From positions 668 through 64,667 of the forward strand of contig CAMDGV010000011.1 of assembly GCA_945898055.1 (NCBI GenBank): a stretch of 64,000 nucleotides of DNA, in the 5' to 3' direction. The position numbers were made by a program, and so were the translations under genes. This DNA is from Akkermansia muciniphila (GTDB lineage: Bacteria; Verrucomicrobiota; Verrucomicrobiia; Limisphaerales; UBA9464). Shown piece after piece: positions 8,695 to 56,438 of the stretch. Each line of letters begins with the position of its first letter. The stretch's first letter is position 1. Below the pieces are notes generated by a model that was not told the DNA's origin, did no database searches, and worked only from the letters and a program-made list of their open reading frames with translations.

Positions 8695-8876
8695 GAGCTG
8701 GGGGTAACCAATTCTAGATTAAAAATAGCGAGGAGGGTTATTGTTTTCAACAGTTGCTCGGGAAAGGTCAAATGTCGACTCCCATTTGGTTTAACGCCCA
8801 TCGGGCCGTTCAGGTTTGCCAAGCTCAGTCTGAACAACGCGGGCTTGGCTAGGGGTGGGTTTTTGCGCATGAAATT

Positions 8877-9290
8877 TCATCGGGCGACTCGACGTGTAAC
8901 GAGACGGATCGCCTTCCAGGGATCGAACTGATTCTCTTCAGTCCAGTCCCTGGAAGTGGCTTCGCGCGTGGCCCGGCCCCTGGACCAGACCTGCTTGAAG
9001 GCCTTGGAAAGACGCCGAAAGATCCCCAAGACACAAGCCGTGTTGGGTTGTCGCACTCGGCTTTCATCCTCGCGCTGGGTTATGTCCAATTGGTAGGAAT
9101 TTGCTTTTTGAGGCGGAGTTTAAGAAGCCGATGATTGGCTCTCTGCAGAACGCGGCGCATTTCAGCCAAATTGGATTCTACAGCGTTGAGTTTCTCGAAG
9201 TGGGACTTTGAGCGTGCGTCGATGATCTGGGCCAGGGTGGTCTAATCGGTTCCAGGTAGCCCGAAGAAGATGCGAGACTAGATGCGGTCG
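8877..9290 (-). pseudogene. Decayed rarA/mgsA-like AAA+ ATPase fragment
   Basis: The minus-strand reading gives IFFGLPGTD*TTLAQIIDARSKSHFEKLNAVESNLAEMRRVLQRA, a Walker A (GPPGTGKTTLA) region broken by a stop. After a frame change it gives VLGIFRRLSKAFKQ (compare ILFIDEIHRFNKAQQD) and TEENQFDPWKAIRLVTR (compare TTENPSFELNSALLSR). The segment is GC-rich relative to its flanks. Confidence 0.55.
9094..9118 (+). repeat. Island-boundary repeat, copy A
   Basis: TAGGAATTTGCTTTTTGAGGCGGAG matches the plus-orientation core of copies B-F (ATAGGAAATTGCTTTTTGACGTGGAG). Confidence 0.6.
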
Positions 9291-9293
9291 ACA

Positions 9294-9962
9294 TCAATGG
9301 CGCGGCGGAGCAGGAGACCCGGGGCCAGAAGATGCCGCCGGCCAGCCTAGGGTGGCACGAGCCCGCTGCACCACGCCAAAGAAGCGTTCCCGCAGGTCGG
9401 CAAAATTGTCCGTGGTTTCGAAATAAATCGGTGCGCTCTGGGCCGTGTGGATAAAATCACTTGGCAGGATCTTATCGGCAAAACGGATCTTCAAACACCA
9501 GCCCTTCAACCTATTTTGATCGCCAGTGCCGTGCTTGACGTGGGGATCGAAGTAAAGCTCCGTGCCCACGGCGTCGCCCAACCATTACAATGAGCGGAGT
9601 TTGAGGCCACTGTTGTCGAGGCGACCCAGCAGCAACTTGTAGCTCCCCGCCCGGGTATCGTCGGGGACGATCTCGATGATTTCGAAGCCGTAGTAGACCC
9701 GAAGTTGCTGGTGTTCCTCATCGTGGTAGACGGTGAGCAGGGGATTGCGCTGATCGGCGCCGAGGATCAATTGACCGGAGGGCGGCAGGGGTGCCGAGCG
9801 GGCTGATTTCGACGCCAAATGGCGATCCGAAGCGGCAGTCTGAATCGAAATCACCGGCTCGGTCGGTGCCACCAGCGGGGGGTGGCACCGCAGCGACCAG
9901 CCCGGGAAACAAGTCGCTACTTTCGTCGTCTGGCATTCGTCACGGTAAGTCTGCCTACGCAA
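9294..9962 (-). pseudogene. Unknown-function reading frame interrupted by an in-frame TAA
   Basis: ORFs 9585..9962 and 9294..9581 are in the same frame and are separated only by the TAA at 9585-9587 (reverse complement). The continuous reading is ...GRLDNSGLKLRSL*WLGDAVGTELYFDPHVKHG... I do not recognise the family. The segment is GC-rich. Confidence 0.4.
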
Positions 9963-10226
9963 AAATCGCTCAAAGCTCAGGGATTTGAACTCGCATCTGA
10001 TTCCTAGGCTTTACCCCCATTCTTCTGAGATCTGAGGTTGAGTGAGTTCAGATTAAATCGGCAAAATGAGCAAACGCTTCGGGAATGGAAACGACTCGAG
10101 ATCACAATCGTAGGCGTTCAAACCGGGTAAAGACCCCTGCCTTTTGATTTCGATCACTCGTAACTGAGCCAATCAGAGGGCAGAACCAGAGTTGTTCTCT
10201 GACCTAACTCAGGCCAACATCCGTCT

Positions 10227-16074: not shown

Positions 16075-16623
<549 letters not shown>

Positions 16624-16626
<3 letters not shown>

Positions 16627-16665
16627 TTATTGATAGGAAATTGCTTTTTTGACGTGGAGGGAAAA
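16624..16665 (+). repeat. Island-boundary repeat, copy B (left end of island; inverted partner of copy C)
   Basis: TAATTATTGATAGGAAATTGCTTTTTTGACGTGGAGGGAAAA. Its first three bases are the coaD TAA stop. Confidence 0.8.
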
Positions 16666-16749
16666 AAAGAAACTATTTGGACGATTGCACGCTTAGCCTC
16701 GACGCTCCTCGCCGAAATGCCCTAACTAGGCACCCTCAGTCGCAGTGAA

Positions 16750-16990
16750 GCCGGCCTGAGCGGCCTCGCGCCCTACAACCGGGACAGCGGCGTGCACAGC
16801 GGACGCCGCACCCCTACGGTGGCTGCCCGCAAGTGCGCCGGGTGCTCTCGATGGAGGCCCTCGGCGCGGCCGCTTTAACCCGATTCTGAAAACGTTTTAC
16901 GACCGGCTCGTAGCCGACGTCAAAGCCAAGAAAATCGCCCTCATCGCCTTCATGCGCCTCCTAAAGAACCCAAAATTTAAGTTCGCCTGA
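16750..16990 (+). mobile_element. IS110-family transposase C-terminal remnant (frameshifted, no N-terminal catalytic part)
   Basis: Reads AGLSGLAPYNRDSGVHSGRR..., then after a frame change RFNPILKTFYDRLVADVKAKKIALIAFMRLL. This matches the conserved IS110 C-terminal pattern LAGLAPFNRDSG...NPVLKAFYQRL...GKPKKVALVACMRKLL. The segment is very GC-rich. Confidence 0.65.
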
Positions 16991-17037
16991 AAGACCGTTG
17001 CTGGCCCACTGGACCCAAGGTCTGACGACCGCCTTCA

Positions 17038-17078
17038 TTTTCCCTCCACGTCAAAAAGCAATTTTCTACTAATAATTA
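17038..17078 (-). repeat. Island-boundary repeat, copy C
   Basis: TTTTCCCTCCACGTCAAAAAGCAATTTTCTACTAATAATTA. Its reverse complement matches copy B over about 41 nt, with a few substitutions and one T-run length difference. Confidence 0.8.
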
Positions 17079-17233
17079 GAATGGTTAAAGGAATGCGCGC
17101 GTGTTAAGAAAACACTCCGAATTTTTCCACCCGTGTCCGGCTGTTGAAGAATAGCCTGCGCAGGGATGGCGAAACCTGCAACCTACTTGAATCCGGTCTC
17201 GAAATTTATCCGCCACTCATTACATACTTACCC

Positions 17234-18700
17234 ATGAATCTCCGGCGTGACCTCCCAGCCTCCCTTGTCGTCTTCCTCGTCGCTGTGCCGTTGTCCCTCG
17301 GCATCGCCTTTGCCTCTGGGGCACCGATCATCGCGGGTCTGATCGGTGCGATGGTGGGCGGGATTGTTACAGGACTGCTTGCTGGGTCACCGCTTCAAGT
17401 TTCGGGTCCAGCGGCCGGCCTGACCGTCGTCGTGGCGGGGTTGGTCGCTCAATTTGGCTGGGAGACGATGTGTTTGATCACGGCTTGTGCGGGGGTGATT
17501 CAGCTTTTGTTGGGTTGGTTCAAGGTGGCACGCGGGGCTCTGATCATTGCGCCGGCCGTCGTGCATGGCATGCTGGCGGGCATCGGCATCTCCATCGCGC
17601 TGGCGCAGATTCATGTGGTGCTCGGCGGTTTGCCGCAGAGTTCACCGGTGGTGAATCTACTCGGTATTCCGAAGCAGCTCGGTCTGGTGAATACGCAGGC
17701 GGCGATTCTTGGTTTGCTGACCATCGCCATCCTTATCATTTGGAAGAAACTTCCCTTCAAAGCCATCCCAGGACCGCTGGTGGCGGTGGTGGCTGGTACG
17801 GTATTGTCCATCTTGATGAAAATGGACGTGAAGCGTGTGGATCTACCGGAGACCTTCGAGTTGACCAAACTAACACCGCCGGAGCATTGGGGGCCGTTTA
17901 TAACCGCGGTCCTGACGGTGGCGATCATCGCGAGCATCGAGTCCCTGCTCTGTGCGGTGGCCACGGACAAGTTGCACAGCGGTGTACGTTCGGATTTGGA
18001 CAAAGAATTGCGGGCGCAAGGCGCGGGAAATCTCGTCTCCGGCCTTCTCGGCGGCCTGCCGATCACGGGTGTGATCGTGCGATCCTCGGCAAACATCATC
18101 GCGGGTGGTGTGAGCCGTTGGTCGGCCATTATCCATGGCGTGTGGATTCTGCTTTTCGTGCTGTTTGCCCGCAACGTGATCGAATCCATCCCGCTGGCCG
18201 TGCTGGCTGGCCTGCTGGTGCATGTCGGTATCAACTTGGTGAATCTCCATCACATCAAAGAGCTGACGAAGCACAATGAGATCCTCATCTACTGGGCCAC
18301 GGTGCTCGGTGTGACCTGTGCGAATCTCCTCGCGGGTGTCGGCATCGGTGTGGGCCTCAGCGTTTTCTTCCTGCTGCGTCGTCTTTCAAACACCGACGTA
18401 AAAATGGCGCAACGTGACGGAAAATGGCAGGTGAAGATCGGAGGCACGCTCACGTTTGCCTCCGTGCCAAGGCTGAACGCCGAACTCTCGAAAATCCCCG
18501 CCGGTCACCCTGTCGAGATCGATCTCGCGGTCGATTTCATCGACCATGCGGCCTTTGAATCGATACACGGATGGCGTCAAAATCACGAAAAGACCGGTGG
18601 CCCTGTCGAGATCGATGAAACGCACGAGCAATGGTACAAGCCCGCCCAAGCGGGCACGCCACGCCAAGGAAAGTCTCTGCCAGCGGCAGCTAAAACCTGA
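17234..18700 (+). CDS. SulP-family anion transporter with C-terminal STAS domain (candidate bicarbonate transporter)
   Basis: N-terminus LVAVPLSLGIAFASGAP, many TM segments, and a C-terminal STAS-like segment KWQVKIGGTLTFASVPRLNAEL...VEIDLAVDFIDHAAFESI. The ATG at 17234 is preferred over the TTG at 17144. Confidence 0.88.
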   Translation: MNLRRDLPASLVVFLVAVPLSLGIAFASGAPIIAGLIGAMVGGIVTGLLAGSPLQVSGPAAGLTVVVAGLVAQFGWETMCLITACAGVIQLLLGWFKVARGALIIAPAVVHGMLAGIGISIALAQIHVVLGGLPQSSPVVNLLGIPKQLGLVNTQAAILGLLTIAILIIWKKLPFKAIPGPLVAVVAGTVLSILMKMDVKRVDLPETFELTKLTPPEHWGPFITAVLTVAIIASIESLLCAVATDKLHSGVRSDLDKELRAQGAGNLVSGLLGGLPITGVIVRSSANIIAGGVSRWSAIIHGVWILLFVLFARNVIESIPLAVLAGLLVHVGINLVNLHHIKELTKHNEILIYWATVLGVTCANLLAGVGIGVGLSVFFLLRRLSNTDVKMAQRDGKWQVKIGGTLTFASVPRLNAELSKIPAGHPVEIDLAVDFIDHAAFESIHGWRQNHEKTGGPVEIDETHEQWYKPAQAGTPRQGKSLPAAAKT

Positions 18701-18706
18701 TTTAAC

Positions 18707-21700
18707 ATGTCTGACGCGGACCAGCACCTTACCCATCAGATTCAGCATGCCGCGCATCTGCTACCGGCGCAGGGGCCAATCGGGGTGTTCATCCATCACA
18801 ACACGCTGCATGCCTTTGAAGATCAGACTTTTGATGAAGCGGTACGCACGGGGTCAAAGGTGTTTGGATGTCAGCCGTATCTTTCGGAGGATCGCTACCG
18901 CGAGGAACTGACGCGCGGGCGCATCCGCTTTGATGAACTGCGCGCGGTTTTGGAGCGTGATCTGGGTGAAATGGCGACAGTGAGCGTGCATGGCCTTTCA
19001 CGGCGGCTCGATCTGCGGTTGGCCATGCTGCAGCATCCGTTGCGCAGCGGCGACGGCCGTGAGCTTGACTGGTTCATGGCGGAAACGGACGCGCTGCTGA
19101 AGGCTCGACGCGATGTCTCCGAGGTTGAGAGGCGGCGTTTAATTACTGAGACACGACATTGGGTCATGCGCAGATTGCGCGGATCTCTGCCTGATGTAGA
19201 GCGGCCCGCATGGATTAAAGATCTGTTTCTACGCTTCAAAGAAACACGCATTGAGGACTGGCATGATGAACGTTGGGAGGCTTTCACGATGTCGGCGCTC
19301 TGGGAGGTTTGTCGGGAAGGGGTACGCCTCGCGGGTGAACATACACCAGCAGCGAAGCCGCTGATCCGTCATCGTGATCTGCTGAATGCTCACGGAGGCA
19401 TGGACAGCGATTTGCTAGTGAATGACGTGCTCATCCGCTTTTGCGCCTCCTTCCTCGATCAAGGCATCGCTCACTGGGCGCTACCGGAGCGTGATGCAGG
19501 CTTTTATGCGTCGTTTTGCTCGCTGCATAGCCAAGGGGACATCACTTCGGCGTGGTGGATGACAGGTGTGCGCCGCGAGATGCAGCGATTGCAAAGTGAG
19601 AAGGTCAGCGCCCTCGAGTGCCTGCATGAGTCGTTGGCTGCACTGGGCGTGAAGACGGATGAAGTCGAAGATTTCCTCTCGGCCACGCTCCTGGCCCTGC
19701 GTGGCTGGGGTGGCATGATCTGGCATGTGGAGCAGCGTGCAGACCGCGTGCATCATGCGGTGCCAGAAGGCACGTTGATCGACTTTTTGGCTGTACGGCT
19801 TTTGTTGGAGCGGTTCGCCGTTCCGGCGGCAGCGGGCAGTTCCATGGGTTACAAAGGCCCGCTCACTGAAATGCGCGAACAATTGGCCGCCCAGATCCCG
19901 TCCGCCCAGCCGAACTGTGATAAGCAACGTGCCTTTCTCGTGTTTCAGTTAGCGCAAGTGCTCGGCTGGACGCCCGCTCAGTTGTTTCATCTTACGCTGG
20001 ACTCGTGGGTGGAGTTGTTTGATGAAATCGAAGGCTTCACCGAGTTGGATCGACGCCGGGTGTTTCATCTGGCCTACGAGCATCGTTTCCGCGTGCAGAC
20101 GATGGATGCGCTGGCTTCACGCAGTGGGCGCAGCGTCAAACCCAAGGAGCGTCCGTCGTTTCAGGCGGTGTTTTGTATCGACGAACGTGAAGAGTCGATC
20201 CGCAGGCATGTCGAGGAGGTCGCGCCGACCGCAGAAACCTTTGGCGCAGCGGGTTTCTTTGGAGTGGTGATGTACTATCGCGGTGCAGCAGCAGCGGACT
20301 TCGTGCCACTGTGTCCAGTCGTGGTGCGGCCGCAGCATTGGGTGTCTGAGGTTGTGGATCGTCGTCTGCTCGATGAAGAAAAGCGCCGCAGCGGCGCACG
20401 CCGTCGTCTGGGCATGGCGCTGACGAGTTTTCACGGCGGCAGTCGTCGCATCGTGAGTGGTGCGTTCTTATCCGCGACGATCGGCTTGCTCGCTACGGTG
20501 CCGCTCGTCGCGCGCGTGGTTTTCCCGCGACTCACCGCCCGGTTTCGAGGTTTCTTCGGCAGCTTCATCGCGCCGTCACCCGTTACCCGGCTCAAACTAG
20601 AGCGCAGTTGCGAGAAGGCATCCCACGCAGATGAGGCGCACGGTTTCTTGCCGCAAGAAATGATCAACATCGCCGAGCGCATCCTGCGTGACATCGGCCT
20701 CACCAGCGGTTTTGCCCGCGTGGTGTTCGTCTTTGGTCACGGCTCCACCAGTATGAATAATCCCCACGAGTCGGCGCATGACTGTGGGGCCTGCGGCGGT
20801 GGCGTGGGTGGGCCAAATGCGCGTGCCATTGCTGAGATGCTCAATGATCCGCGCATTCATACAGCCTTAAAGCCGCGCGGCATCCAGATCCCCGCAGACA
20901 CCGTTTTCATCGGTGGTCTGCACAATACCGCGAACGACAACCTCACCTTCTCCGACGTGGATCGCGTGCCGCAGACGCATCAGTTCGAGTTTGAAGTGGC
21001 GTGCAAAGCCATGAACGAGGCGGTGGAGCGGAATGCGCACGAGCGTGCCCGCCGCTTCGGCTCCGCATCACTCGGACTCACGCAAACCGCAGCGAAGCGC
21101 CACATGGAGGGCCGGTCCGAAGATTTATCTCAAGTGCGGCCCGAGTGGGGCCACGCGACGAACGCCATCTGCATCGTTGGTCGTCGTGAAAAGACGCGCG
21201 GGCTGTTCCTCGACCGCCGCGCCTTCCTCGTGTCTTACGATCCGGAGCAAGATGATGCGGAGACGGCGATCCTGGCCCGCATCCTCGGTGCGGTGGTGCC
21301 GGTGTGCAGCGGCATCAATCTGGAATACTATTTCTCCTATGTGGACTCACCCGGCTGGGGCAGCGGGTCGAAGCTGCCGCACAACATCACCGGCCTGCTC
21401 GGCGTCATGGATGGTGCCATGAGTGACCTGCGCACGGGGTTGCCCTGGCAGATGGTCGAGATTCACGAGCCGGTGCGATTGCTCTTCGTCATCGAAACGA
21501 ATGCTGCGGCCTTTTTGGCGATCATGGAGAAGAACGCTGCGATCAAAACGATGGTGACCAAGTTGTGGGTGCAGGTCGCGCTGATGGATCCAGCCACTGG
21601 AGCGCTCAGCCTGTATCAAAATGGTCAGTTCGAGCCCTATCAAAGCCACGCGGGTCCGCTACCGGTCGCTGCGTCATCCAAGGAATGGTACACCGGTTGG

Positions 21701-21742
21701 AGAGAGCATCTGGAGTTCGCTGAAATCAAAGCCGCCGCGTGA
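18707..21742 (+). CDS. dabA: DabA / DUF2309 family protein (inorganic-carbon pump, beta-CA-like subunit)
   Basis: N-terminal LLPAQGPIGVFIHHNTLHAFE. CIDERE supplies Cys490 and Asp492. GHGSTSMNNPHESAHDCGACGG supplies His678 and Cys693. This is the family's Cys/Asp/His/Cys zinc-site pattern. 1011 aa. Confidence 0.88.
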   Translation: MSDADQHLTHQIQHAAHLLPAQGPIGVFIHHNTLHAFEDQTFDEAVRTGSKVFGCQPYLSEDRYREELTRGRIRFDELRAVLERDLGEMATVSVHGLSRRLDLRLAMLQHPLRSGDGRELDWFMAETDALLKARRDVSEVERRRLITETRHWVMRRLRGSLPDVERPAWIKDLFLRFKETRIEDWHDERWEAFTMSALWEVCREGVRLAGEHTPAAKPLIRHRDLLNAHGGMDSDLLVNDVLIRFCASFLDQGIAHWALPERDAGFYASFCSLHSQGDITSAWWMTGVRREMQRLQSEKVSALECLHESLAALGVKTDEVEDFLSATLLALRGWGGMIWHVEQRADRVHHAVPEGTLIDFLAVRLLLERFAVPAAAGSSMGYKGPLTEMREQLAAQIPSAQPNCDKQRAFLVFQLAQVLGWTPAQLFHLTLDSWVELFDEIEGFTELDRRRVFHLAYEHRFRVQTMDALASRSGRSVKPKERPSFQAVFCIDEREESIRRHVEEVAPTAETFGAAGFFGVVMYYRGAAAADFVPLCPVVVRPQHWVSEVVDRRLLDEEKRRSGARRRLGMALTSFHGGSRRIVSGAFLSATIGLLATVPLVARVVFPRLTARFRGFFGSFIAPSPVTRLKLERSCEKASHADEAHGFLPQEMINIAERILRDIGLTSGFARVVFVFGHGSTSMNNPHESAHDCGACGGGVGGPNARAIAEMLNDPRIHTALKPRGIQIPADTVFIGGLHNTANDNLTFSDVDRVPQTHQFEFEVACKAMNEAVERNAHERARRFGSASLGLTQTAAKRHMEGRSEDLSQVRPEWGHATNAICIVGRREKTRGLFLDRRAFLVSYDPEQDDAETAILARILGAVVPVCSGINLEYYFSYVDSPGWGSGSKLPHNITGLLGVMDGAMSDLRTGLPWQMVEIHEPVRLLFVIETNAAAFLAIMEKNAAIKTMVTKLWVQVALMDPATGALSLYQNGQFEPYQSHAGPLPVAASSKEWYTGWREHLEFAEIKAAA

Positions 21743-23106
21743 CCATGCCTGTCCTCGAATCCTTTCTCTCCACACTCGGGCTACTCATCGTCGCCGCACC
21801 CGTGCTGCTGCTCGCCGTGTTCTTTGGTACCTTTTTGACCCAGCGGCGACTCCAAGAGGCCACCATTGGCACCCTAGTCCAAGGCAGCATCGGCTTCAGC
21901 CTACTGTCCGCCGTGGGGGCGGCTGCCACCATGCTATGGCACCGCGTGGCGCAGCACCCCATCGAGCTGGGAGATTGGGTGATCACGCCGCACTATCATT
22001 TGAGTTTCGAGTTCGTTCTCGATCTGCTCTCACTCTCTTATGTGATGCTCACGCTCGTCTTGTGTGCCGTGATCGCGGCTTTCTCCACGCGCTACCTGCA
22101 TCATGAGCGTGGCTACAATCGCTTCTTCGTACTGTTTGCTCTCTTCCTACTTGGGATGGTCACAGCATCGCTGTCGGACACGGTGGAAACGCTGTTTGCA
22201 GGCTGGGAAATGGTGGGGCTATCCTCCGTGTTGCTCATCGCATTCTTCCAAGAGCGGCCCGCGCCGCCGCGCAATGGTCTGCGGGTGTGGGTGGTCTATC
22301 GCATCTGCGACGTGGCGCTGCTACTTGCTGCCATCTTGATGCATGAAATCAACGGTGCGGGTGATTTCGACCATCTCGTGGGCAAAAGCGCCTGGCCTGC
22401 ACACGATCCGCTGCTCATCGGTCCGCACTTCACCATGCTGGGAGTCCTCTTCATCATTGCCGCAGCGGGTAAATCTGCCCTGGTGCCTTTCTCCGGTTGG
22501 CTGCCGCGTGCCATGGAGGGCCCGACGCCTTCAAGTGCGGTGTTTTATGGGGCACTCAGCGTGCATCTCGGCGCGTTTTTGCTGCTGCGCGTGAGTCCGG
22601 TCCTGGACAGCTCCATCTGGCTACAAGTCGCTGTCGTGGTGCTCGGCTCTACGACGTCTGCCTTTGCCTATCTCGCCGGTCGCGTGCAGACGGACATCAA
22701 ATCCGCACTCGCCTTTGCCTCACTGACTCAAGTCGGACTCATCATTTCCGAAATCGGCCTCGGCTTTCGCTACCTCGCGCTCTTGCATCTACTCGGCCAT
22801 GCCTGCCTGCGCACGCTGCAATTCCTGCGCGCACCCAGCTTGCTGCACGATCATCACCAACTCGAAAACGCCATTGGCAGTCGGCCGCGTGAGGAAGGCG
22901 TGATGTGGGAGCAACGCTTGTCGCCGAAGATGCAGCTCTGGCTTTACCGCTTCTCACTGGAGCGCGGCTATCTCGACACCCTGCTCGAAAAATTCGTCGC
23001 ACGTCCGTTTGTCGCGCTGTTTCGCGGCTTAGACGAGTTGGAGACAAAATGGGCTAAACTGCTTGATGGCGAGTCCAAGGCGAAGGAGGCGCCGCGAGAC
23101 CAATGA
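21739..23106 (+). CDS. dabB: NuoL/MrpA-type proton-conducting antiporter-like subunit (DabB-like)
   Basis: Canonical PF00361-type segment FSGWLPRAMEGPTPSSAVFYGALSVHLGAFLLLRV and about 12 TM segments. The GTG start overlaps the dabA stop (GTGA at 21739-21742). An in-frame ATG at 21745 is an alternative start. Confidence 0.85.
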   Translation: MTMPVLESFLSTLGLLIVAAPVLLLAVFFGTFLTQRRLQEATIGTLVQGSIGFSLLSAVGAAATMLWHRVAQHPIELGDWVITPHYHLSFEFVLDLLSLSYVMLTLVLCAVIAAFSTRYLHHERGYNRFFVLFALFLLGMVTASLSDTVETLFAGWEMVGLSSVLLIAFFQERPAPPRNGLRVWVVYRICDVALLLAAILMHEINGAGDFDHLVGKSAWPAHDPLLIGPHFTMLGVLFIIAAAGKSALVPFSGWLPRAMEGPTPSSAVFYGALSVHLGAFLLLRVSPVLDSSIWLQVAVVVLGSTTSAFAYLAGRVQTDIKSALAFASLTQVGLIISEIGLGFRYLALLHLLGHACLRTLQFLRAPSLLHDHHQLENAIGSRPREEGVMWEQRLSPKMQLWLYRFSLERGYLDTLLEKFVARPFVALFRGLDELETKWAKLLDGESKAKEAPRDQ

Positions 23107-24428
23107 TCGATTTTTCTTGGCTCGGAGTCACTTTACTCTTGCCACTGCTCGGGGCGGTGGTCGCGGTGTTCCTCAAAGTGCCCGCTGTGGCCATGCGGGT
23201 GAGTTTGGGCTTCTTCGCTGGCACTCTGATCACGGCTACAGCGGCCAATCTGACCTTTGCAGGCCCGAAGCTCGCGTGGCTGAACCATTTCGCTGTCGAT
23301 GATCTCGCCGCGCCGATGCTGCCTGTGTTGGCGCTGCTGCATCTGCTCACGCTGCTTGGCACGGCAAAGTCGCGCGTGTCGCCGATGTTCTGTGTTCGTC
23401 TATTGATCGCGGCATTCGTCAGTCTCGCGGCTGTGACATGTCAGACGCCGGCCATACTCATTGCGCTGCTGGTGCTCGGCGTGCTGGTGCCGCTGTGGGA
23501 TCTGATGAGCCGCGGCCAACCCGTGCGCGGTTACTTGATCCATATGAGCTTCTTTGTCGCGCTGCTCGTGACTGGTTGGCAGTTTGTAGGTCAAGACATC
23601 GGCTATGGCCTGCTACTGATCGCGCTGCTGCTGCGCGGCGGCATCGTGCCACTGCATGGCTGGCTACCCACGCTTTTTCAAGGTGCTGCGTATGGTACGG
23701 CGATGGTCTTTGTGCTGCCGCTGATGGAGGTACTGGCCGCGCTGCGACTGCTACTACCCTCCACGCCCGAGTGGATGCTGAATGCAGCCGGCGTCGTGTG
23801 CCTGATCACAGCTGTGTACGGCGGCGGCATGGCCATCGTGCAAAATGAGGTGCGGAAGTTCTTTGCTCATCTCTGCCTCAGTCAGACTGCGCTGGTGATG
23901 TTCGCCGTGATGCTGCACACCTCAAACGGCCTCACCGCTGCGCTGTGTTTGTGGATTTCCTCCTCGCTGGCTCTCGCAGGTCTCGCCTTCTCGGTGCGTG
24001 CGTTGGAAGCCCGCTTCGGCCCGCTCTCATTGCGAGAATTTCACGGCTTCTACGAGCAGGTGCCCGGCTTGGCGATCTGCTTTCTGATGACCGGACTCGC
24101 CAGCGTAGGGTTTCCAGGGACCATCGGCTTTGTGCCGATGGAGCTGCTCATCAGCGGCAGCGTCGAGCAGGGACTCGGGGTCAGCCTCACCTTAGCTATC
24201 GCCGCCATGCTCAACGGCGTCGCCATCATGCGTGCCTACTTCGCGCTCTTCACTGGCAAACGTCCCACGACCTCCGTCTCGCTGCAAAAGACACCGATGG
24301 AACGTGCTGGCATCATCCTCATCGCGCTGATCGTTTTTCTCGGCGGATGGTTCTCACCCGGCATGGTGGCGTCACGCCATCACACGGCTGATCGGTTGCT
24401 GGACCGGGTGCTTGTGGAGACGCGATGA
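23103..24428 (+). CDS. Second, divergent antiporter-like (NuoM/N/MrpD-type) membrane subunit
   Basis: Polytopic membrane protein with an ATGA overlap onto the preceding gene (23103-23106). The homologous segment HGWLPTLFQGAAYGTAMVFVLPLMEVLAAL keeps the WLP framework but lacks the PTPxSA core. Confidence 0.7.
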   Translation: MIDFSWLGVTLLLPLLGAVVAVFLKVPAVAMRVSLGFFAGTLITATAANLTFAGPKLAWLNHFAVDDLAAPMLPVLALLHLLTLLGTAKSRVSPMFCVRLLIAAFVSLAAVTCQTPAILIALLVLGVLVPLWDLMSRGQPVRGYLIHMSFFVALLVTGWQFVGQDIGYGLLLIALLLRGGIVPLHGWLPTLFQGAAYGTAMVFVLPLMEVLAALRLLLPSTPEWMLNAAGVVCLITAVYGGGMAIVQNEVRKFFAHLCLSQTALVMFAVMLHTSNGLTAALCLWISSSLALAGLAFSVRALEARFGPLSLREFHGFYEQVPGLAICFLMTGLASVGFPGTIGFVPMELLISGSVEQGLGVSLTLAIAAMLNGVAIMRAYFALFTGKRPTTSVSLQKTPMERAGIILIALIVFLGGWFSPGMVASRHHTADRLLDRVLVETR

Positions 24429-24431
24429 GGC

Positions 24432-24710
24432 ATGCCCCCTGGCCCGGTTGCATTATCTCCCCTCAAGGGAATGGGTTTTCGAGAGGTGAAGATGGTTCTT
24501 GAGAGCAAGTCCATCACGCCTCCTCACAAAGTAATGTCGCATCCTGCCGAGCCCGCCTTCGTTCATCCGATTACAGCCTCGGTGGTTGGCTACCTTCCGT
24601 ATCCGCCGAAGCGCAAGAAGCCGCTCGCGAGTGATCTGCGGATCGCGGAAAAGGCCAAGAAGCCTGCGATCTTCACGCTCGACAATCTCCGCCGCGATGC
24701 GCTCGACTGA
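24432..24710 (+). CDS. Hypothetical 92-aa ORF directly after the dab operon
   Basis: It starts 3 nt after the preceding stop and has no recognisable motif. The opposite strand is also open over this stretch, as expected in GC-rich DNA, so coding status is uncertain. Confidence 0.2.
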   Translation: MPPGPVALSPLKGMGFREVKMVLESKSITPPHKVMSHPAEPAFVHPITASVVGYLPYPPKRKKPLASDLRIAEKAKKPAIFTLDNLRRDALD

Positions 24711-25119
24711 TCGATCACCGGCCTTATCGCAGTGCCGCTGACGGTGGGGATCTGCCTCAGGTCGGAGGATTCGATCGAGACAGGTTTGATGACGGTGCTG
24801 TTCGCCTTTGTGGCAGTTTCATCACGTCCTTATTCCGTCGAGGAAACTACGTCGTCGTCCCCGGAGTCGCCGATGGACTAGCGCCCGTGCTGGCGATAAG
24901 CGTGCATAAATTTGGCATGGAGAACAGGCCGCTTCTGATCTTCCTCACCTCGCTATCACAAGCTGTCGGGTGGAAGTTTAACCTCCAGCCCCCCCAAAAA
25001 AACTCAGACACTAAAAGCTAGATCGCCACAAAAACTAATCGCCGGGCGCATTGACAGCTTATCTTCGAGGAAAGTAAAGTGTTAGGGCAGTAGTACAAAG
25101 CCCCATTTGCCTTTCTTGG

Positions 25120-25146
25120 CTCCACGTTAAAGCGATTTCCTATCAA
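25120..25146 (-). repeat. Island-boundary repeat, copy F
   Basis: CTCCACGTTAAAGCGATTTCCTATCAA matches the core of copies C, D and E. Confidence 0.65.
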
Positions 25147-25543
25147 TGACTTTATTCACACTTGTCGGTTTTTGGAATCAGCTCAGGAGACGTCGAGGCT
25201 CATCCCAACCCGGACTCGATGGGTCCAGTCGGCACCAGCCTGCTTCGGCGGCGATCAAGCAGGCACCCCGCTTCTCGCCCGTGGCCATCGTCCGGATGAC
25301 CTACCTAGGCCTAGGTGTGTGTTTTGCATTTTTTTTCGCAAACGGGTGGAACCAACGCAAACCCGAGGGAACCTGGTTTCCACGGGGCATTTCCGATACG
25401 ATTCAGCTGCTACAACTACGGGGTGGCGAACACGTTGGGAAATCTGATAGGATTTGACGACTTCACTCCTTCAGACGTTTCGAGAGCAATGAATGACGCA
25501 GCCAAATATATGACAAGTGAGACTGTTTCGCCTTCGCTTTTCG

Positions 25544-25585
25544 CCTCCACGTAAGGGCAATTTCCTATGAACCAATTTCCTATCA
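25544..25585 (-). repeat. Island-boundary repeat, copy E, plus a partial duplicate of its inner end
   Basis: CCTCCACGTAAGGGCAATTTCCTATGAACCAATTTCCTATCA. CAATTTCCTAT occurs twice, at 25558-25568 and 25573-25583. The glycosyltransferase ATG (25567-25569) overlaps the end of the repeat. Confidence 0.65.
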
Positions 25586-28500
25586 GTTGTTCAGTTACCG
25601 AACTCGGACTCCCCGTCCGCTGGTTGGCACCGATCTTCAACCCCAGCGGGTATGCCAGCGAGGCCATCAACTTCGTGCTGCCGTTGGAAAATCGCTGCAC
25701 CTTGGGAATCAATCATAAAACTAACGTCTATTCTGAGGGCTTCACCCGAGGCCTGCCGTCCGCTGACCGCGAGGCGCTCTTTCGGATGCGCGACCGGTTT
25801 GAAGGAATGAGTGGCGGCATTGTCGTCTTCCACAATCCGGCCGGCGGCTTCATCCGCCTTCCTGATGCCGACTACAGCATCGGCCGCACAATGTTCGAGA
25901 CCGATCGCATCGCACCCGAATGGGTTGCCGCCTGCAACCGGATGGATGAGGTGTGGGTACCCTCGCAGTTCAATCTTGAGACCTTTGCCGCCAGCGGAGT
26001 CGAACGTTCGAAATTGGTGGTGATTCCAGGTGCGGTGGATTCGGAGTTTTTCGATCCGGCCCGGCATACGGTCTACCCGTTGCCCAGCAAGGCCCGGTTC
26101 AATTTTCTGTCGATTTTCGAGTGGTCCTCCCGCAAGGGCTGGGACGTGTTGTTGGCTGCTTATTTGCGGGAGTTCTCGGCCGAGGACGACGTGTGCCTGT
26201 GGCTGCGCACCTACTTGTTCTCTAAGCCCGACGGGGATCCGACCGAGGCGATCTGGCAACGGATCCGGGCGTTCACCGCATCGTTGGGTTTGGAGGGTAA
26301 AAATCTGCCCCGGATCGAACTCATTGCCGATCAGGTGCCTAGCGCGCAATTGCCGGGGTTATACTTGGCCTGCGACTGCTACGTGGCTCCAAGTCGGGGC
26401 GAGGGCTGGGGACGCCCGCAACACGAGGCCATGCTTATGGAGCGGCCGGTCATTGCCACCAACTGGAGTGCCAACACCGAGTTCATGTCCGAGAAGACCA
26501 GCTACTTGCTGAACTATGAAGTGGTCGAAGCGCGCGGTCTCGAACCCGAGCTCTGGCACTACAAGGGGCACCGCTGGGCCAATCCTTCCGAGACCCACTT
26601 GCGATCGCTGATGCGCCGGGTGTTCACCCATCCGGAGGAAGCCCGCGTCAAGGGCCAGGCGGCCCGCCAACACATGGCCCGCCACTACAGCCGGGAGGCC
26701 GTGGCTGACCAGGTGACGCACCGGTTGCAAGTAATCGAGCGCTCGTTGCTCTCACCGCAATTGCCACCGGCACGGGCAATCGATCTCCATGGATCGGACG
26801 CGACGAACTCCCCCATGTCAGCAGGACCTAACGCAAGGCCTAACGCCACCCTCACCGTGTCACTGGAAGGATCCTTCCTCGACCTAGGTTCTCTCTCGCA
26901 TGTGAATCGCTCTCTGATCCGGGGCCTCAACCAAGAGCCCCGGTTCCGAGCTGTCGCCGTCTCGACAGACACCACGACGGCCAATCCCAATTCCCCGGAT
27001 CTGAAGGGTTGGTCTCAGCGAGTGCAGAAGCGCTCCCCCTCGGACACCGCGATCACCCTACGTCACGACTGGCCGCCGAACTGGCGTCGCCCGGAATACG
27101 GGGCATGGGTACTGATCCAGCCTTGGGAATTCGGATCCATCCCTGCCGAGTGGGCGACCGAAGCCCTGAATGTAGATGAGATCTGGTGCCCCAGCCGCTA
27201 CGTCCGGAGTTTGTACCTGCAGGCGGGTATCCCGAGGGAAAAACTCCGGGTGCTGCCCAACGGCTACAATCCCGCGATTCACCATCCCGGAGCCGCACCC
27301 ACGCCCATCGCCACGAGCAAGCGCTTCAAGTTCCTCTTCGTCGGCGGAACCATCGCTCGCAATGGATCAGACCTGTTGTTGGAGACTTACCTGAAAACCT
27401 TCCGCCGTTCCGACGACGTGTGCTTGGTGATCAAGGACTTCGGCGGCAAATTGGCCTACCGGGGGCAGACCTTGTCCGAGCGAATCCAAGCGGCTCAGAC
27501 CGACCCAGCAGCACCGGAGATCGTGTATTTCGATCAGGAGTTGTCCGAGCACGACCGGGCCGGGCTCTACACCGCCTGCGACTGCCTGGTGCACCCTTAC
27601 CGCGGCGAGAGCTTTGGACTCTCGGTGCTTGAGGCGATGGCCTGCGCGCTGCCCGTGATTTGCACCGGGGGCGGTTCCACCGACGATTTCGCTACCGATG
27701 AGTTCGTTCATCGCATCCCGGCCACTCGGGAATTTGTCGGCAACGAAGTGGACGGTCTGAAACTGGACCATCGAGGCTGGTGGTTGACCCCAGATCCGGA
27801 TGCTTTGGGCCTAGCCCTCCGCGCAGCCGTAGAACAAGCACCGCAGTGGAGGCAACGAGCCCACCTAGGCTCCGAGCATGTGGCCGCCCATTGGACCTGG
27901 AAAAACGCCGCACAAACCGCCGCCCGTTTTGCTTGGGAGTTGGTGGCCCGCCGCACAGCCCAGATGGAAGAGAAGGCTCGCCTCGCGCGATCGAAGCGTC
28001 CGTTGACCTTGCCCGAGGTTTCCTTCCAGGGAGATCTGCTAGCCGCCAGAAAGGCCTTCCAAACGAAGAACATCCCGGACGCTTGGCGACTGGCCTGCAC
28101 TGCCATTGAAGAGCGTCCCTTCCACCCAGAAGGATGGGTCTTCTTGAGCGAGGTGGCTGTCAGCGCGGGTCATCGGGCCCTAGCCCGCCGTTGCGCCCAG
28201 AAGGCCGTCGCTCTGGCACCCAACTGGAAGCCAGCTCTGCGGCAACTCTCCAGCATTACCAGTGGGGCCGACAAACCCACGGTCGAATTGAGCGCCCCCC
28301 CGTTGCGCGAAGGTTTGGCGCCACGCCTGTCGGTCTGCCTCATTGCCAAGAACGAGGAACGTTTCCTCGACGGCTGCCTCCAATCGATCCGCGGCTTGGC
28401 CGATCAACTCATTCTGGTGGACACCGGATCCACGGATCGAACCGTGGAAATCGCCCGCAACCACGGGGCCGAAGTCCATTTCCGAGCTTGGGACCACGAC

Positions 28501-29937
28501 TTCAGTGCCGCCCGCAATGCCGCCCTGCTGCACGCCCGCGGCGACTGGGTCTTGATCCTGGATGCCGACGAAGAAGTCTCCCCGGCGCAACACGTAGCGC
28601 TGCGTGCGCTCCTGACTCGACCCAACGCGATCGCTTACCGGTTGCCCCTGGTGGACGTCGGTCGCGAAAGTGACGGCGTCAGCCAGGTGCTCCGCCTGTT
28701 CCGCAACGCGCCGCAGCAGTTCTACGTAAGCCGGATCCAAGAAAAGGTGCACACCAGCCTCGAACTGAACCGTGAGAAGTGGAGGATGGAGAACCTCTTC
28801 GGTGACGCACAACTCATCCATTATGGCTCCCAAGCCGAAGTCATGAAGAGTCGGGACAAGGTCCAGCGGAACCTCCGCCTCTTAGAACAAGCCAACGAGG
28901 AACACCCCAACGACGTCAACCTGCTCATGAACCTCGGACTGGAACTTTGGCGATCCGGTCAACACTTCCACGGCATTGGGTACTACCAGCAATCCTACAC
29001 GGCCATGCTGGAGCAACCCTACGCCCAGACACTCCCGGAGTTGAGGGAAGTCCTGCTCACCCAGTACGCTTCGCTCCTGTTGAGCCTCCAACTCTACAAA
29101 GACGTCATCACCCTCTTCCAAGACCAAGCCCTTGCGCCCAAGGCCCGCACGGCCTCGCAGCACTTCATGATGGGGTTGGCTTATTCCGCACTTCAGAACT
29201 GGGAGCCCTGCGTGACCCATTTTCAGCAATGCCTGAAATTGCGGAACCAACCAGCACTCACTCCTATCCATCAGGACATTCGAAGTGCAACCCCGGCCCA
29301 CTGCATGGCTCATGCCCTGCGAAAGCTCGGGCGCAAGGTCGAGGCTAAGAATGCTTATGAACAAGCCCTTCACGACGACCCTCTCAATGAATCGGCGCGG
29401 GTAGAGTTCGCAGTTTTCGAGGCAGAGGAGGGCCAGATTGTTTCAGCCCTCACCCTGCTGCACGCGGGCATCCAGCAGAACCCTATGCAGGCCAAGGTCT
29501 GGGAGGCGGGTGGAGCCCTTTCGCTCCGCCAACGCGACACCCTGGAGTTCGCTCTAGACTGGAGCGGCGAGGCCCTCAAGCACCTGCCCGACCACGCCAC
29601 CTTGCAGCGGCAGCGGGCGGAGGTCCTCTTGCTGAACGGGCAGGCCCACGAGGCCCTACCACTCTGGAGCGAGATGTCACGGTCCAACGATGCGGACAGT
29701 TCCTCCGGCCTCATCCTCTGCCGCCTGTTCGCAGGCGAGTCGCAGTCGGCCGTGCCGCCGGACCGCGAAATGGCCATCAGCCAAGATCTAATCCGGAGAT
29801 ACCGACAGGCGGTGGAAATGGGCCTCGACGCTTGGGTCCACGCCTTGCACCAGCGGGTCGATACTCTTCGTCAGACACTGCCCTCGGCTGCTCGCTTCAT
29901 TGATTTGGTGGTCGCCGAGTCCGGCCCAGAAAAGTGA
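25567..29937 (+). CDS. Multidomain glycosyltransferase: GT4-like, GT4-like, GT2-like, then C-terminal TPR region
   Basis: First GT4 signature: [30 protein letters not shown]. Second GT4 signature: [32 protein letters not shown]2 signature: [21 protein letters not shown]...[10 protein letters not shown]...ILDADEEV. A long TPR-like helical repeat region follows. 1456 aa. Confidence 0.85.
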
Positions 29938-29993
29938 TCAGCCAAATTGCCTATGAAACCCCTAAATCCGCCCTGCCTCCGGCTTCTTTCCCA

Positions 29994-30030
29994 TTTCTCT
30001 CCGCGTCAAAAAGTAATTTCCTATTAATTT
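29994..30030 (-). repeat. Island-boundary repeat, copy D (right end of island)
   Basis: TTTCTCTCCGCGTCAAAAAGTAATTTCCTATTAATTT. The HAD gene stop (reverse-complement TAA at 30024-30026) lies inside it. A partial inner-end-like copy CAAATTGCCTATGAAACC lies at 29943-29960. Confidence 0.75.
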
Positions 30031-30809
30031 GATAACAAAAGGCGGGGAATCCAAGTTTCCATCGCAGTGTAGTCGGACACGCTAAACTCGGCTCCAGCGG
30101 CCATAAGGCGAATTTCTTTGGAGGTATCCAGCCGACCTGAATGCCACACTTCTTCATCAGCCGCCACGGCGATCGCCCGACCACCCGCTGCGACCGTTTC
30201 TACAATTTCAGTGACCCCATCCCCAAAGGCAATCACTTGGGTGATCGGATTGAGTCGGTATTCTTGTATAATCGAACGAATGGCAGTGCGCTTGTGAAAG
30301 GCGGTGTCGGTGAGCGAGAGCGGTCCATGAATACGTTCAGCGAAGAAGTCGCGTAGGCCCAAAATATCGACTTCCTCAGAGACGAACGGACGGGGTGTAC
30401 CGCTAATAATATGAAGAGCGACCCCAGCACCGCGCAGTCGGGTTAAAAATTGGCGTCCACCTAAGACCATGAAGTGATCAGCAGAGTGTAATCCTGAGCG
30501 GATAGAATCGGTTCGCTCTTGAATCACTCGACCGAGTCGAGCCTGAAAATCAGCCTGAAACGCCTCGGGAGTCCTCGGTGAGCCACCTCGTTCTTGGATC
30601 CAATCAGCGAGTCGTTGCATCTGATGAATGCTGGGGCGCCCGTTGAGAGCCCAGATCTCATTATGGGCAAGATCGGTTCGAGTTTGTTCTGTTTCACTCG
30701 GTAGAGCCGGCAAGAATTCCATCCACTGCTTGAGCATCACTTCGCCCCAACCTGCACGAATGAAAGAAAGTGTCCCGTCCCAATCGAAAAGGGCGTGAAT
30801 TTGGTTCAT
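30024..30809 (-). CDS. HAD-superfamily hydrolase
   Basis: DxDxT motif in MNQIHALFDWDGTL and a late FGDG motif. The ATG at 30807-30809 is preferred; the ORF-track extension to 30968 would overlap the upstream gene. Confidence 0.8.
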   Translation of the reverse strand: MNQIHALFDWDGTLSFIRAGWGEVMLKQWMEFLPALPSETEQTRTDLAHNEIWALNGRPSIHQMQRLADWIQERGGSPRTPEAFQADFQARLGRVIQERTDSIRSGLHSADHFMVLGGRQFLTRLRGAGVALHIISGTPRPFVSEEVDILGLRDFFAERIHGPLSLTDTAFHKRTAIRSIIQEYRLNPITQVIAFGDGVTEIVETVAAGGRAIAVAADEEVWHSGRLDTSKEIRLMAAGAEFSVSDYTAMETWIPRLLLSN

Positions 30810-30816
30810 AACTGGA

Positions 30817-31851
30817 TCAAAGGGTGACTGGCAGTCCGGTCCGAATGGACTCTTCCTCGGCTTCACAGACAGCCACCGCGGCGGCTCCCTCTTCCGCAGT
30901 GACAACGGAAGGAGGTCGACCCGCGAGGATCGACTCGGTGAAGTGACGCAATTGCCCAACATACCCATCGGTGCCGTTGACTGGGATGACTTGGGCCGGA
31001 GCCCCTTCGACGAAGAGTTTTAAAGTGTCAGTTCCACGAGAAATATCGTAGTCCAAAGTGGCTCGTTCGAAGACAACGGTATAAGCCATGTTAAAGCCGA
31101 AACCAGGGGTCATAGCCCAGCTTCCCTCGGCGCTGACAACGGCTCCACCTTCGACATCGAAGAGGGAGACTAAATGATCAATGCCACCGCTGACCCGAGT
31201 GTGGCCACGGGAAACCACCCGAGACGGTGGGCCGAAGCAGTGGCGAATGAAGTCGACATCATGGATATGAAGATCGAGAAGTGCCCCCCCAGAATCGGCG
31301 GCATTCAGGAAGTGGCTGTGGCCCCAACCGGGTGCTTGAGCGACCCGTCGGAAGCGCGCACTGAGGACGCGACCGTAGGTATTGGCCGTGATAGTTGTTT
31401 TTAGCAAGGCCCATTCCGGCCAGAAGCGGAGACACATTGCTGGCATAAGAAAGACACCATGGGCAGCGGCTTGAGCAGCGGCAGCCGCCAATTGGCGACC
31501 CTCGATAGCGGTGCGAGCCATTGGCTTTTCGACCAAGACATGTTTACCCGCTTTGAGCGCAGCGAGAGCGAATTGAAGATGAGTTTTAGTAGGAGTCGTG
31601 ATGTCGACGACTTGAATCAAAGGATCAGCGAGGAGTTCGTCGACAGTGCGATAAGCGCGAATCTGGGACATATCTAATTTCAGCCCATTAGGATCTCCGA
31701 CATTGCCTCCGACAGCGGAGAGATCCCCATCAAGGTTGCGTCCGCTTGGATTACAGAGCGCCCCGACGGAGGCGTTAGGCACGGAGGCGAGTGCCTTAAT
31801 ATGAGTTGCGGCCATGAAGCCAAGACCGAGGAAACCAAATTGAAGCGGCAT
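30817..31851 (-). CDS. Gfo/Idh/MocA-family NAD(P)-dependent oxidoreductase
   Basis: Rossmann N-terminus FGFLGLGFMAATHIKAL and a VLVEKPMA motif. The internal ATG at 31851 is preferred. Confidence 0.88.
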   Translation of the reverse strand: MPLQFGFLGLGFMAATHIKALASVPNASVGALCNPSGRNLDGDLSAVGGNVGDPNGLKLDMSQIRAYRTVDELLADPLIQVVDITTPTKTHLQFALAALKAGKHVLVEKPMARTAIEGRQLAAAAAQAAAHGVFLMPAMCLRFWPEWALLKTTITANTYGRVLSARFRRVAQAPGWGHSHFLNAADSGGALLDLHIHDVDFIRHCFGPPSRVVSRGHTRVSGGIDHLVSLFDVEGGAVVSAEGSWAMTPGFGFNMAYTVVFERATLDYDISRGTDTLKLFVEGAPAQVIPVNGTDGYVGQLRHFTESILAGRPPSVVTAEEGAAAVAVCEAEEESIRTGLPVTL

Positions 31852-56402: not shown

Positions 56403-56438
56403 GGAGGCTTACAAATATAAATTTCAGACAGAAGATTC

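Follow-up and report, generated by a model that had tools for sequence, protein, structure and literature searches.

The 64,000 nucleotides analysed here (the window; contig CAMDGV010000011.1 of assembly GCA_945898055.1, positions 668 to 64,667, deposited as Akkermansia muciniphila) contain a 13.4-kb stretch (16624-30030) that lies between coaD and the gene for a HAD hydrolase. This island holds a four-gene cassette for inorganic-carbon uptake (sulP-dabA-dabB-dabB2), a large glycosyltransferase (GT) fragment, a transposase relic and five copies of a short repeat placed at the junctions. As set out below, the region is a genuine, well-delimited, multi-step horizontal acquisition. The window matches a lake-metagenome contig (ENA ERZ27280286, 68.8 kb) at 99.9% identity, and the same locus was found again in several further samples at 95.8-99.9% identity; the named relatives of its proteins are Verrucomicrobiota. 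Pfam assigns coaD, SulP, DabA, two Proton_antipo_M proteins, a GT4+GT2+TPR protein, the HAD hydrolase and Gfo/Idh/MocA, which agrees with the identities proposed in an initial annotation made from the letters of the sequence. Gene calls likewise place every island gene on the + strand, as had been claimed.

The island differs from its surroundings in composition. Guanine-plus-cytosine (GC) content is 0.566-0.625 in 1-kb bins from 17001 to 30000, with a dip to 0.540 at 25001-26000, against mostly 0.50-0.55 in flanking bins. By segment it is 0.528 in the left flank, 0.596 in sulP-dab, 0.543 in the spacer 24429-25566, 0.613 in the GT gene and 0.513-0.521 in the right flank. The contrast resides in third codon positions: GC3 is 0.667-0.740 (mean 0.705) in the six open reading frames (ORFs) of the island versus 0.387-0.585 (mean 0.512) in 32 flank genes (Mann-Whitney p = 6.6e-5), and GC2 is the same in both sets. 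In tetranucleotide usage, the correlation with the flank background, about 0.87 in the flanks, is down to 0.43-0.69 inside the island. All three measures bear out the initial annotation, which had described a GC-rich, compositionally distinct stretch from a handful of spot counts, and the full profile shows those counts to be representative. Its further statement, that everything between the outermost repeats is different, holds for most of the stretch and fails for about 0.9-1.1 kb at 24.4-25.6 kb, where GC content is host-like. Integrases and intact transposases, which it had reported missing, are indeed absent from the scanned ORFs of the 64-kb window; we also found no tRNA gene at the border or in the searched window, and no Rfam family.

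We compared the island with 115 loci fetched from relatives and strains (L numbers) and with individual relative proteins (P numbers). Relatives of DabA were sought among genomes, one per species. The closest, at 89-90% amino acid (aa) identity, come from two Verrucomicrobiaceae metagenome-assembled genomes (MAGs; L014 and L015), followed by further Verrucomicrobiota at 71-80% and by Planctomycetota at about 55%. The cassette proteins of L014 and L015 are 86-90% aa identical to those of the window, and the identical order sulP-dabA-dabB-dabB2 occurs in at least 15 Verrucomicrobiota MAGs (L014-L029, L040). In those relatives, no coaD, ParA, glycosyltransferase, HAD or Gfo gene lies within 10 kb of the cassette. 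At the DNA level, homology is limited to 17133/17240-24391/24407 and is best with L014 and L015 (80.6-81.8%); on these alignments the left edge of the foreign DNA would fall between 17079 and 17133. L014 and L015 have a common left flank unlike those of the window, which indicates that the context of the cassette in that lineage is stable and different from the one seen here. Cassette GC content is 0.62-0.69 in at least 12 relatives, whose own flanks are at 0.55-0.68 and mostly within 0.01-0.04 of it, whereas in the window the cassette stands at 0.596 in a background of 0.52. The GC3 of dabA is 0.75-0.88 in relatives and 0.68 here. Against another strain of the same species the dab genes are 99.56% identical and the flanks 99.5-99.6%, and the ratio of non-synonymous to synonymous substitution rates (dN/dS) of the dab genes, window versus strain L105, is 0-0.10. 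The cassette is thus kept under purifying selection. We conclude, partly by inference, that its donor was a higher-GC verrucomicrobial lineage, that its arrival predates the divergence of the sampled strains, and that it has been partly ameliorated and is in use. In L014 (Verrucomicrobiaceae MAG H5_VER2), the closest cassette relative, a second sulP lies right behind the first cassette, and a second dabA/dabB set, inverted, follows a few kb further on (L014:15833-22803).

The genes predict a DAB-type CO2-hydration/bicarbonate-uptake system. DabA and DabB form an energy-coupled CO2-hydrating pump (bioRxiv 10.1101/476713; 10.64898/2026.05.01.722082), and as in such pumps the DabA of the window (PF10070) is followed in one operon by a NuoL-like Proton_antipo_N/M subunit. 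The window differs in having a second antiporter-like subunit (441 aa) with a Proton_antipo_M match, which is larger than the DabC of DAB1 operons, a small protein with no matching Pfam family (bioRxiv 10.64898/2026.05.01.722082). Two further differences are the fixed SulP-family gene upstream, shared with the relatives, and the host, presumably a heterotrophic Verrucomicrobium. The locus thereby provides a breakpoint-level record of an uncultured freshwater Verrucomicrobium that acquired, and then retained, a complete DAB/SulP cassette from a higher-GC relative. It bears on how heterotrophs obtain CO2/bicarbonate-scavenging capacity, and it shows that sulP-dabA-dabB-dabB2 moves, or persists, as a block across Verrucomicrobiota.

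The second foreign segment has other relatives. Its 1,456-aa ORF is 87% aa identical to residues 986-2435 of P0084 and 1059-2513 of P0083, proteins of 2,435 and 2,513 aa whose C-terminus it shares; the closest GT relatives overall lie at 84-88% aa. What had been annotated as a giant glycosyltransferase is a glycosyltransferase, but one reduced to the C-terminal core (about 1,450 aa); in its closest relatives the gene carries an additional N-terminal part of about 1,000 codons. In L106 and L107 the GT gene sits between fliD and fliS, a position that we infer to be a flagellin-glycosylation locus. DNA homology to these loci (86.4%) spans 25597-29987, from a few bases after repeat E to directly before repeat D, and reaches 50 nt beyond the stop codon, about 15 codons into the next gene of the donor. 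The joint between the GT fragment and repeat D shows a GGCT(T)CTT microhomology, and the ATG of the ORF is located within repeat E. In L106 and L107 the part homologous to the window has a GC content of 0.63, like their own genomes, and the N-terminal 1,000 or so codons are at 0.49-0.50. This step marks the codon at which window homology begins as a module boundary there too, and suggests that these GTs have undergone module swapping at that codon. Farther homologues, which share 46-48% identity, stand alone as proteins of about 1,450 aa; accordingly, the window GT corresponds to the family core minus an N-terminal add-on, a core excised from its native locus and not necessarily dead. Compared with strain L105, the GT gene has 44 non-synonymous and 29 synonymous differences (dN/dS 0.48, against 0-0.31 in neighbouring genes), and its dN is ten times that of its neighbours, which points to relaxed or diversifying selection. 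The N-terminal parts in the two fli loci differ from each other in their domains, GT2 versus GT29 plus methyltransferase (L106:10001-17308, L107:4122-11663).

Between the two foreign segments lies a spacer with two small ORFs, orf92 and orf103. Neither these nor segment X, the stretch between repeats F and E, gave a Pfam match or a homologue outside the same species, and the non-coding parts of the spacer are the most strain-variable (94.8-97.6% identity). Since segment X has no homologues and changes fast between strains, it is probably non-coding debris. The sigma-70-like site TTGACA-18-TAAAGT linked to repeat F is the top promoter-like site between 16 and 31 kb.

Differing nearest relatives and native contexts of the dab and GT segments agree with the earlier proposal that the island was assembled by more than one acquisition. 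The relation of the island to its insertion site is less clear-cut. All strains of the same species (95.8-99.9% identity) share the island layout. Beyond the species, a search with the HAD protein over 5.8 billion proteins returned nothing between 71% and 99% identity, and the Gfo-HAD DNA is 66-69% identical to that of the nearest other lineages. HAD relatives at 63-71% aa keep the Gfo-HAD pair (L004, L006, L007, L012); downstream of HAD they have a 183-189-aa gene, a TolC-like OEP gene and others, and never coaD. Consequently, the island lies at a synteny breakpoint, and an insertion exactly between coaD and HAD, as first proposed, is unproven. Relatives in other lineages are closer for the island (dab 86-90%, GT 84-88% aa) than for the flanking HAD (at most 71%), a comparison between proteins whose rates differ. 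In one strain of the species, a deletion has removed 150 bp from within the HAD gene (L011:1379-1385; window 30434-30584).

Table 1. Features of the island and of its surroundings (positions are those of the window).
Feature	Position	Strand	Basis and remarks
coaD, left host flank	16132-16626	+	Pfam CTP_transf_like, E = 1.1e-24; gene call in L001; GC3 0.485; stop TAA (16624-16626) overlaps outer edge of repeat B
Repeat B	16624-16666	-	nhmmer 36.6 bits; sole inverted copy; tip faces coaD
IS110-family transposase relic	16690-17022	+	C-terminal Transposase_20 part with frameshifts and short right end; between B and C
Repeat C	17038-17078	+	inverted repeat with B; tip faces sulP
Foreign segment 1, inorganic-carbon uptake cassette	17133-24428	+	7.3 kb; Pfam, DNA and aa homology; GC3 0.68-0.735
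sulP	17234-18700	+	
dabA	18707-21742	+	PF10070, E = 3.7e-240
dabB	21745-23106	+	Proton_antipo_N and Proton_antipo_M; 453 aa
dabB2	23103-24428	+	Proton_antipo_M; 441 aa
orf92, uncharacterised ORF	24432-24710	+	GC3 0.667; no homologue beside the cassette in relatives
Sigma-70-like promoter TTGACA-18-TAAAGT	25051-25080	+	rightward; just inside repeat F
Repeat F	25111-25148	+	solo copy
Segment X, including orf103 (25146-25457)	25149-25535	+	between repeats F and E
Repeat E	25536-25590	+	solo; half-site with 15-nt internal duplication; gives GT start codon
Foreign segment 2, giant-glycosyltransferase core	homology 25597-29988; ORF 25567-29937	+	4.4 kb; aa and DNA homology; GC3 0.74
Repeat D	29989-30030	+	solo; tip overlaps HAD stop, inner edge joined to GT fragment
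HAD hydrolase, right host flank	30024-30809	-	Pfam; GC3 0.496; stop inside repeat D
Gfo/Idh/MocA	30817-31851		Pfam; next after HAD
Repeat A, outside island	9088-9118	-	nhmmer 15.9 bits, E = 0.02 overall, 2e-5 locally; tip faces orphan DUF1501 gene
DDE-type transposase relic	9336-9878	-	in ORF-poor 8700-10200; one stop codon

The joints of the island are occupied by a repeat. A profile search of the 64 kb returned the five island copies and the weaker copy A, and nothing further; B, C, F, E and D lie at the places and in the orientations reported for them before, with the coaD TAA forming B's first triplet and D enclosing the HAD stop. The motif TAGGAAATTGC, allowing at most one mismatch, has 7 matches versus 1.08 expected. 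The core of the repeat is CTCCACGT-N4-7-GCAATTTCCTATCA with a pyrimidine tract ahead of it, so that its two conserved blocks stand a variable 4-7 nt apart, and the copies are homologous at 75-90% identity. Intact neighbour DNA lies at the CCTATCA end of each copy, and relics or joints lie at the opposite side. DNA folding gave z-scores of -0.24 to +2.2 with no stem spanning the repeat, and the repeat has no match in Rfam. Copies B and C form 42-bp inverted repeats 372 nt apart that are about 90% alike; the inverted-repeat search gave 86-88% complementarity. Immediately outside this pair, AGAATAATTA precedes B and TAATTAGAAT follows C, which yields a direct duplication of TAATTA (6 bp) or AGAAT (5 bp), depending on where the tips are placed; this is the one instance of such a duplication. 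When the B/C pair is removed, coaD still ends in its own TAA, followed by GAATGG.

The repeat also occurs in another species. Scanning Joint Genome Institute (JGI) metagenomes with the strict core yielded nine contigs, all of which represent a single locus in a single other species (GC 0.55-0.59); the remaining JGI matches (L096, L098) are probably due to chance, and a scan of IMG/VR gave chance matches only. At that locus the repeat follows a TTGACA-16-TATAAAT promoter and precedes the ATG of a PSD/PSCyt + DUF1552 operon (L102, L104). Copy F together with at least 90 nt upstream is homologous to this promoter/leader (z = 9-18), and no other copy shares upstream sequence. Two strains of the other species, L095 and L102, are about 98% identical upstream and part exactly after the DUF1552 stop codon (compare L095:2040-2110 with L102:5488-5560). 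There L095 has a degenerate copy, 12-18 nt after the stop, with its tip towards the gene and with three tandem TTTCYTATC units, followed by a convergent DUF1501 gene. With its tip directed at the 3' end of DUF1552, this copy parallels the arrangements of coaD with B and of HAD with D. The repeat is thus known from two species, at six places in the window and two loci in the other species, one of them a strain-variable junction, although no clean pair of filled and empty sites was seen.

Relics of two transposases accompany the repeat. The translation of the relic between B and C, once its frameshifts are repaired, matches Transposase_20 (PF02371) with E = 2.3e-7 and 31.5 bits (cutoff 21.3), which shows that the IS110 remnant noted earlier is real. 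Against P0202, tblastn gives 67-83% identity, and strains L113-L115 carry this relic too. What is left is about 100 C-terminal codons in three frames, roughly one third of the gene, without the N-terminal DEDD/RuvC-like domain and without an intact ORF. The second relic lies outside the island and reads towards repeat A, from which it is 217 nt away. In it, residues ~8-106 of a DDE-type transposase are fused in frame to residues ~384-465. A phmmer search found 210 relatives of this relic, the best at 87% identity (tblastn 55-83%; family hidden Markov model [HMM] E = 3e-51); full-length relatives measure 730-940 aa, and Pfam and NCBIfam give only marginal Transposase_29 and IS4 matches. The family appears to be a poorly described insertion sequence (IS) family of the Planctomycetes-Verrucomicrobia-Chlamydiae (PVC) group. 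No intact copy was found in PLSDB, IMG/VR or the 115 fetched loci, and a plasmid search with the 8.7-10.2 kb pseudogene had no match. A PSCyt/PSD1 partner usually stands ahead of a DUF1501 gene, and does so in L004; the adjoining DUF1501 gene (7330-8694) is without one, and its place is taken by repeat A and the transposase relic.

With moderate confidence, we read the region as a mosaic patchwork built up at one permissive intergenic spot, with IS-end relics as its repeats and no single mobile element behind it. The most probable identity of the junction repeats is that of IS-end relics. On the inner side of three of the six copies (A, B and C) an IS relic adjoins, although such relics make up only about 2% of the window. 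The inverted B/C pair with its flanking direct repeat looks like a separate small insertion behind the coaD stop. The IS110-family relic between B and C, copy A placed like a right end behind the DDE relic, and the L095 copy at a point where two strains part also favour a transposon end over a leader alone. The initial annotation had taken B and D as the two bounds of one island; this does not hold, as B pairs with C and the left foreign edge moves to 17079-17133. Its view that the repeats cut the island into units stands, the homology of the GT segment running from a few bases past E up to D.

According to the patchwork account, the repeat would be the terminal inverted repeat of an IS now dead in the region, with TGATAGGAAATTGC...ACGTGGAG as its proposed ends in inverted orientation. 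B and C would be the ends of a 450-bp, internally deleted, non-autonomous copy that inserted behind the coaD stop, duplicating 5-7 bp, and in which an IS110-family element had nested. F, E and D would be solo right ends, the tip of each cleanly joined to the DNA on its right; their inner sides may have been lost through deletion or illegitimate joining, of which GGCT(T)CTT would be the mark at the GT/D joint. Repeat A occupies the right-end position behind the DDE relic, and that transposase, of about 850 aa when complete, would be the best candidate for the enzyme of the element. Copy F would retain an outward sigma-70-like promoter that could drive the GT fragment. Repeated IS insertion may have rendered the site both recombinogenic and tolerant, fragments being fixed by IS-mediated and illegitimate recombination and the IS bodies decaying afterwards.

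Several observations weigh against this account. The proposed IS did not turn up as an intact copy in PLSDB, IMG/VR or the fetched loci. The link between A and the DDE relic comes from one locus, with no left-end copy beyond the relic, and the idea that the repeat encodes the C-terminus of a transposase failed two HMM tests. A partner and a target duplication are seen for B/C only, and the length of that duplication is ambiguous because AATT is self-complementary. The interior of F is unrelated to those of A, C, E and D, so that the repeat could be a promoter-leader module; the solo copies F, E and D share one orientation, for which the probability by chance is about 1 in 8, and a cassette array fits this equally well. 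Finally, no empty site was found in eight relatives examined from the HAD side or from the coaD side, where the relatives reached were strains of the same species.

The leader idea is the best surviving competitor, though we hold it to be unlikely. The repeat would then be a native, promoter-proximal 5' leader, directly behind copies of which foreign ORFs became fixed, the copies being duplicated along with them. The copy in the other species, set between promoter and operon ATG, speaks for this, as do the homologous promoter of F and the presence of an ATG within the repeat or at most 15 nt after it in F, E and L102, E supplying the start codon of the GT gene. The repeat is moreover unstructured, as a leader would be, and C, F, E and A are aimed into downstream genes. 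However, B, D and the L095 copy are aimed antisense into the 3' ends of genes at their stop codons, C, E and D have no promoter part left, and the inverted B/C pair with its flanking direct repeat encloses an IS relic. Nor does any further copy stand ahead of about 35 other genes of the window or in about 100 kb of the nearest relatives. A leader also accords with an IS end bearing a promoter directed outwards, and is to that extent only partly a rival of the patchwork with IS ends.

We give rather less credence to the repeat as an att-like site, at which the array C-dab-F-X-E-GT-D would have grown by serial site-specific integration of circles. The recombinase would be encoded elsewhere or lost; it may have been an IS110-type enzyme, the relic of which adjoins C. 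Four copies in the same orientation do separate unrelated segments, the edges of the segments lie within 10-20 nt of the repeat edges, all cargo is on one strand, and the IS110 relic abuts C at about the same inner position at which the GT fragment is joined to D. But no gene for an integrase or recombinase was found among the scanned ORFs of the 64 kb, dyad and hairpin are both absent from the repeat, unlike attC and typical core sites, and the spacing of its blocks varies from 4 to 7 nt. A gap of 55 nt separates C from the left edge of the dab segment, and the geometry of B and C resembles transposition. Moreover, the cargo is not gene-precise: it runs from an internal module boundary to about 15 codons within the next gene and ends at a microhomology joint, which looks like illegitimate joining. 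An undescribed way of capturing DNA with the repeat as its working site, in which for instance an RNA-guided recombinase of the IS110 type would act at a fixed position slightly inward of another IS's terminal repeat, is more doubtful again; its slim chance of being real comes from the three solo ends, which share one direction and each directly precede a different segment. If it were true, capture would string unrelated fragments head to tail behind successive repeats, each with a ready start codon or promoter, and the outcome would be a cassette array without an integron integrase.

That the region is native, with nothing acquired and its GC content due to gene-specific codon bias or expression level, is hardly credible: it is carried by all strains of the species, dab strain identity resembles that of the flanks and the closest relatives of the island genes are all still Verrucomicrobiota, but GC3 is raised by 0.19 in every island gene, including the ORF without known function, at unchanged GC2, the tetranucleotide profile breaks, the GT gene has been displaced from between fliD and fliS with 50 nt of a neighbouring gene attached, IS relics lie at the junctions, and downstream of HAD the relatives with the Gfo-HAD pair differ in gene content.

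Several identities for the repeat or the island were tried and rejected. The repeat is not an attC site, a repetitive extragenic palindrome (REP/REPIN), an IS200/IS605 end or a terminator, as no copy folds better than shuffled sequence and a terminator scan stayed at chance level. Promoters of the sigma-54 and extracytoplasmic function (ECF) types have consensus spacings of GG-N10-GC and AAC-N16-CGT, and judged by eye the GG-N5-GC and GGAAA-N11/12-CGT of the repeat would not fit them. For a DDE transposase C-terminus (PDGSGRxLRFxL), the full-length HMM had no match at any copy and an HMM of the C-terminal block ranked none among its top six-frame matches. A single 13.4-kb transposon from B to D is contradicted by unmatched flanks (AGAAT/TAATTA versus TTTGA...), by the far greater likeness of B to C, and by the mosaic interior. 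For a composite transposon two complete IS copies are missing; there are only end relics of 40-150 bp and no transposase ORF. An integron or a cluster of attC sites lacking integrases (CALIN) is rejected for want of an attC-like fold and an IntI integrase, and the cargo is a four-gene operon plus a gene fragment.

Compared with described systems, the locus resembles genomic islands at core-gene hotspots in its compositional break, in its metabolic and surface-glycosylation cargo and in its stepwise growth from varied origins, and also in having IS relics and short repeats at junctions between convergent housekeeping genes. It differs from them in the absence of tRNA, integrase, conjugation or phage genes, in donors from the same phylum, in that one piece is a gene fragment, and in that no empty site is documented. 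Like IS derivatives of the miniature inverted-repeat transposable element (MITE) kind, B and C form a pair of terminal inverted repeats of about 40 bp some 450 bp apart with a short duplication; the difference is that the parent IS is represented by a candidate DDE relic beside A only and that the repeat occurs in two species. As with nested IS110/IS1111 elements, the IS110 remnant lies directly inside one repeat, and solo copies stand at other junctions. Examples of such nesting are IS4321/IS5075 in the inverted repeats of transposons from the Tn21 family and IS1383 in those of IS1384. The earlier remark that the arrangement matches no described element type was therefore too strong, since IS ends with IS110 nesting are a described pattern. 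PMC11208160 cites Partridge & Hall 2003 and Muller et al. 2001 for IS110-family members inserting into the terminal repeats of other transposons, and the family consists of programmable site-specific recombinases (PMC11208160). The copy in the window is a one-third relic, so that its insertion site is not comparable with a target consensus; it is a natural example of an IS110-family element beside the end of another element.

The head-to-tail order of unrelated segments, some with truncated genes, between IS ends of the same direction recalls IS26 translocatable units and capture by ISEcp1, as does the outward promoter at one end. In the window, however, each IS copy is reduced to 40-150 bp without a transposase, and the copies are true homologues (75-90%), whereas ISEcp1 uses fortuitous sequences resembling its right inverted repeat (IRR). 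Integrons and CALIN likewise have one-way segments split by a recurring short site, and CALIN need no integrase nearby; here the repeat lacks an attC-like hairpin, junctions are imprecise and the cargo does not consist of single promoterless ORFs. The locus does not overturn current ideas, and its value is descriptive, the case being one of fairly ordinary gene acquisition. It does flag a DDE transposase family of about 750-940 aa together with a candidate terminal repeat, a starting point for annotating ISs of the PVC group.

Two features lie elsewhere in the window. At 54738-58145, two neighbouring paralogous FG-GAP/ASPIC-UnbV genes (GC 0.42-0.45, GC3 0.39) constitute a second atypical patch, of low GC content, with a tetranucleotide correlation of 0.52-0.60 and internal direct repeats (families D1-D3). 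From 59540 to 64000 the GC skew is strongly positive (0.15-0.35) and the listed ORFs are all of 120 aa or less; this stretch is probably part of a very long gene that continues past the end of the window.

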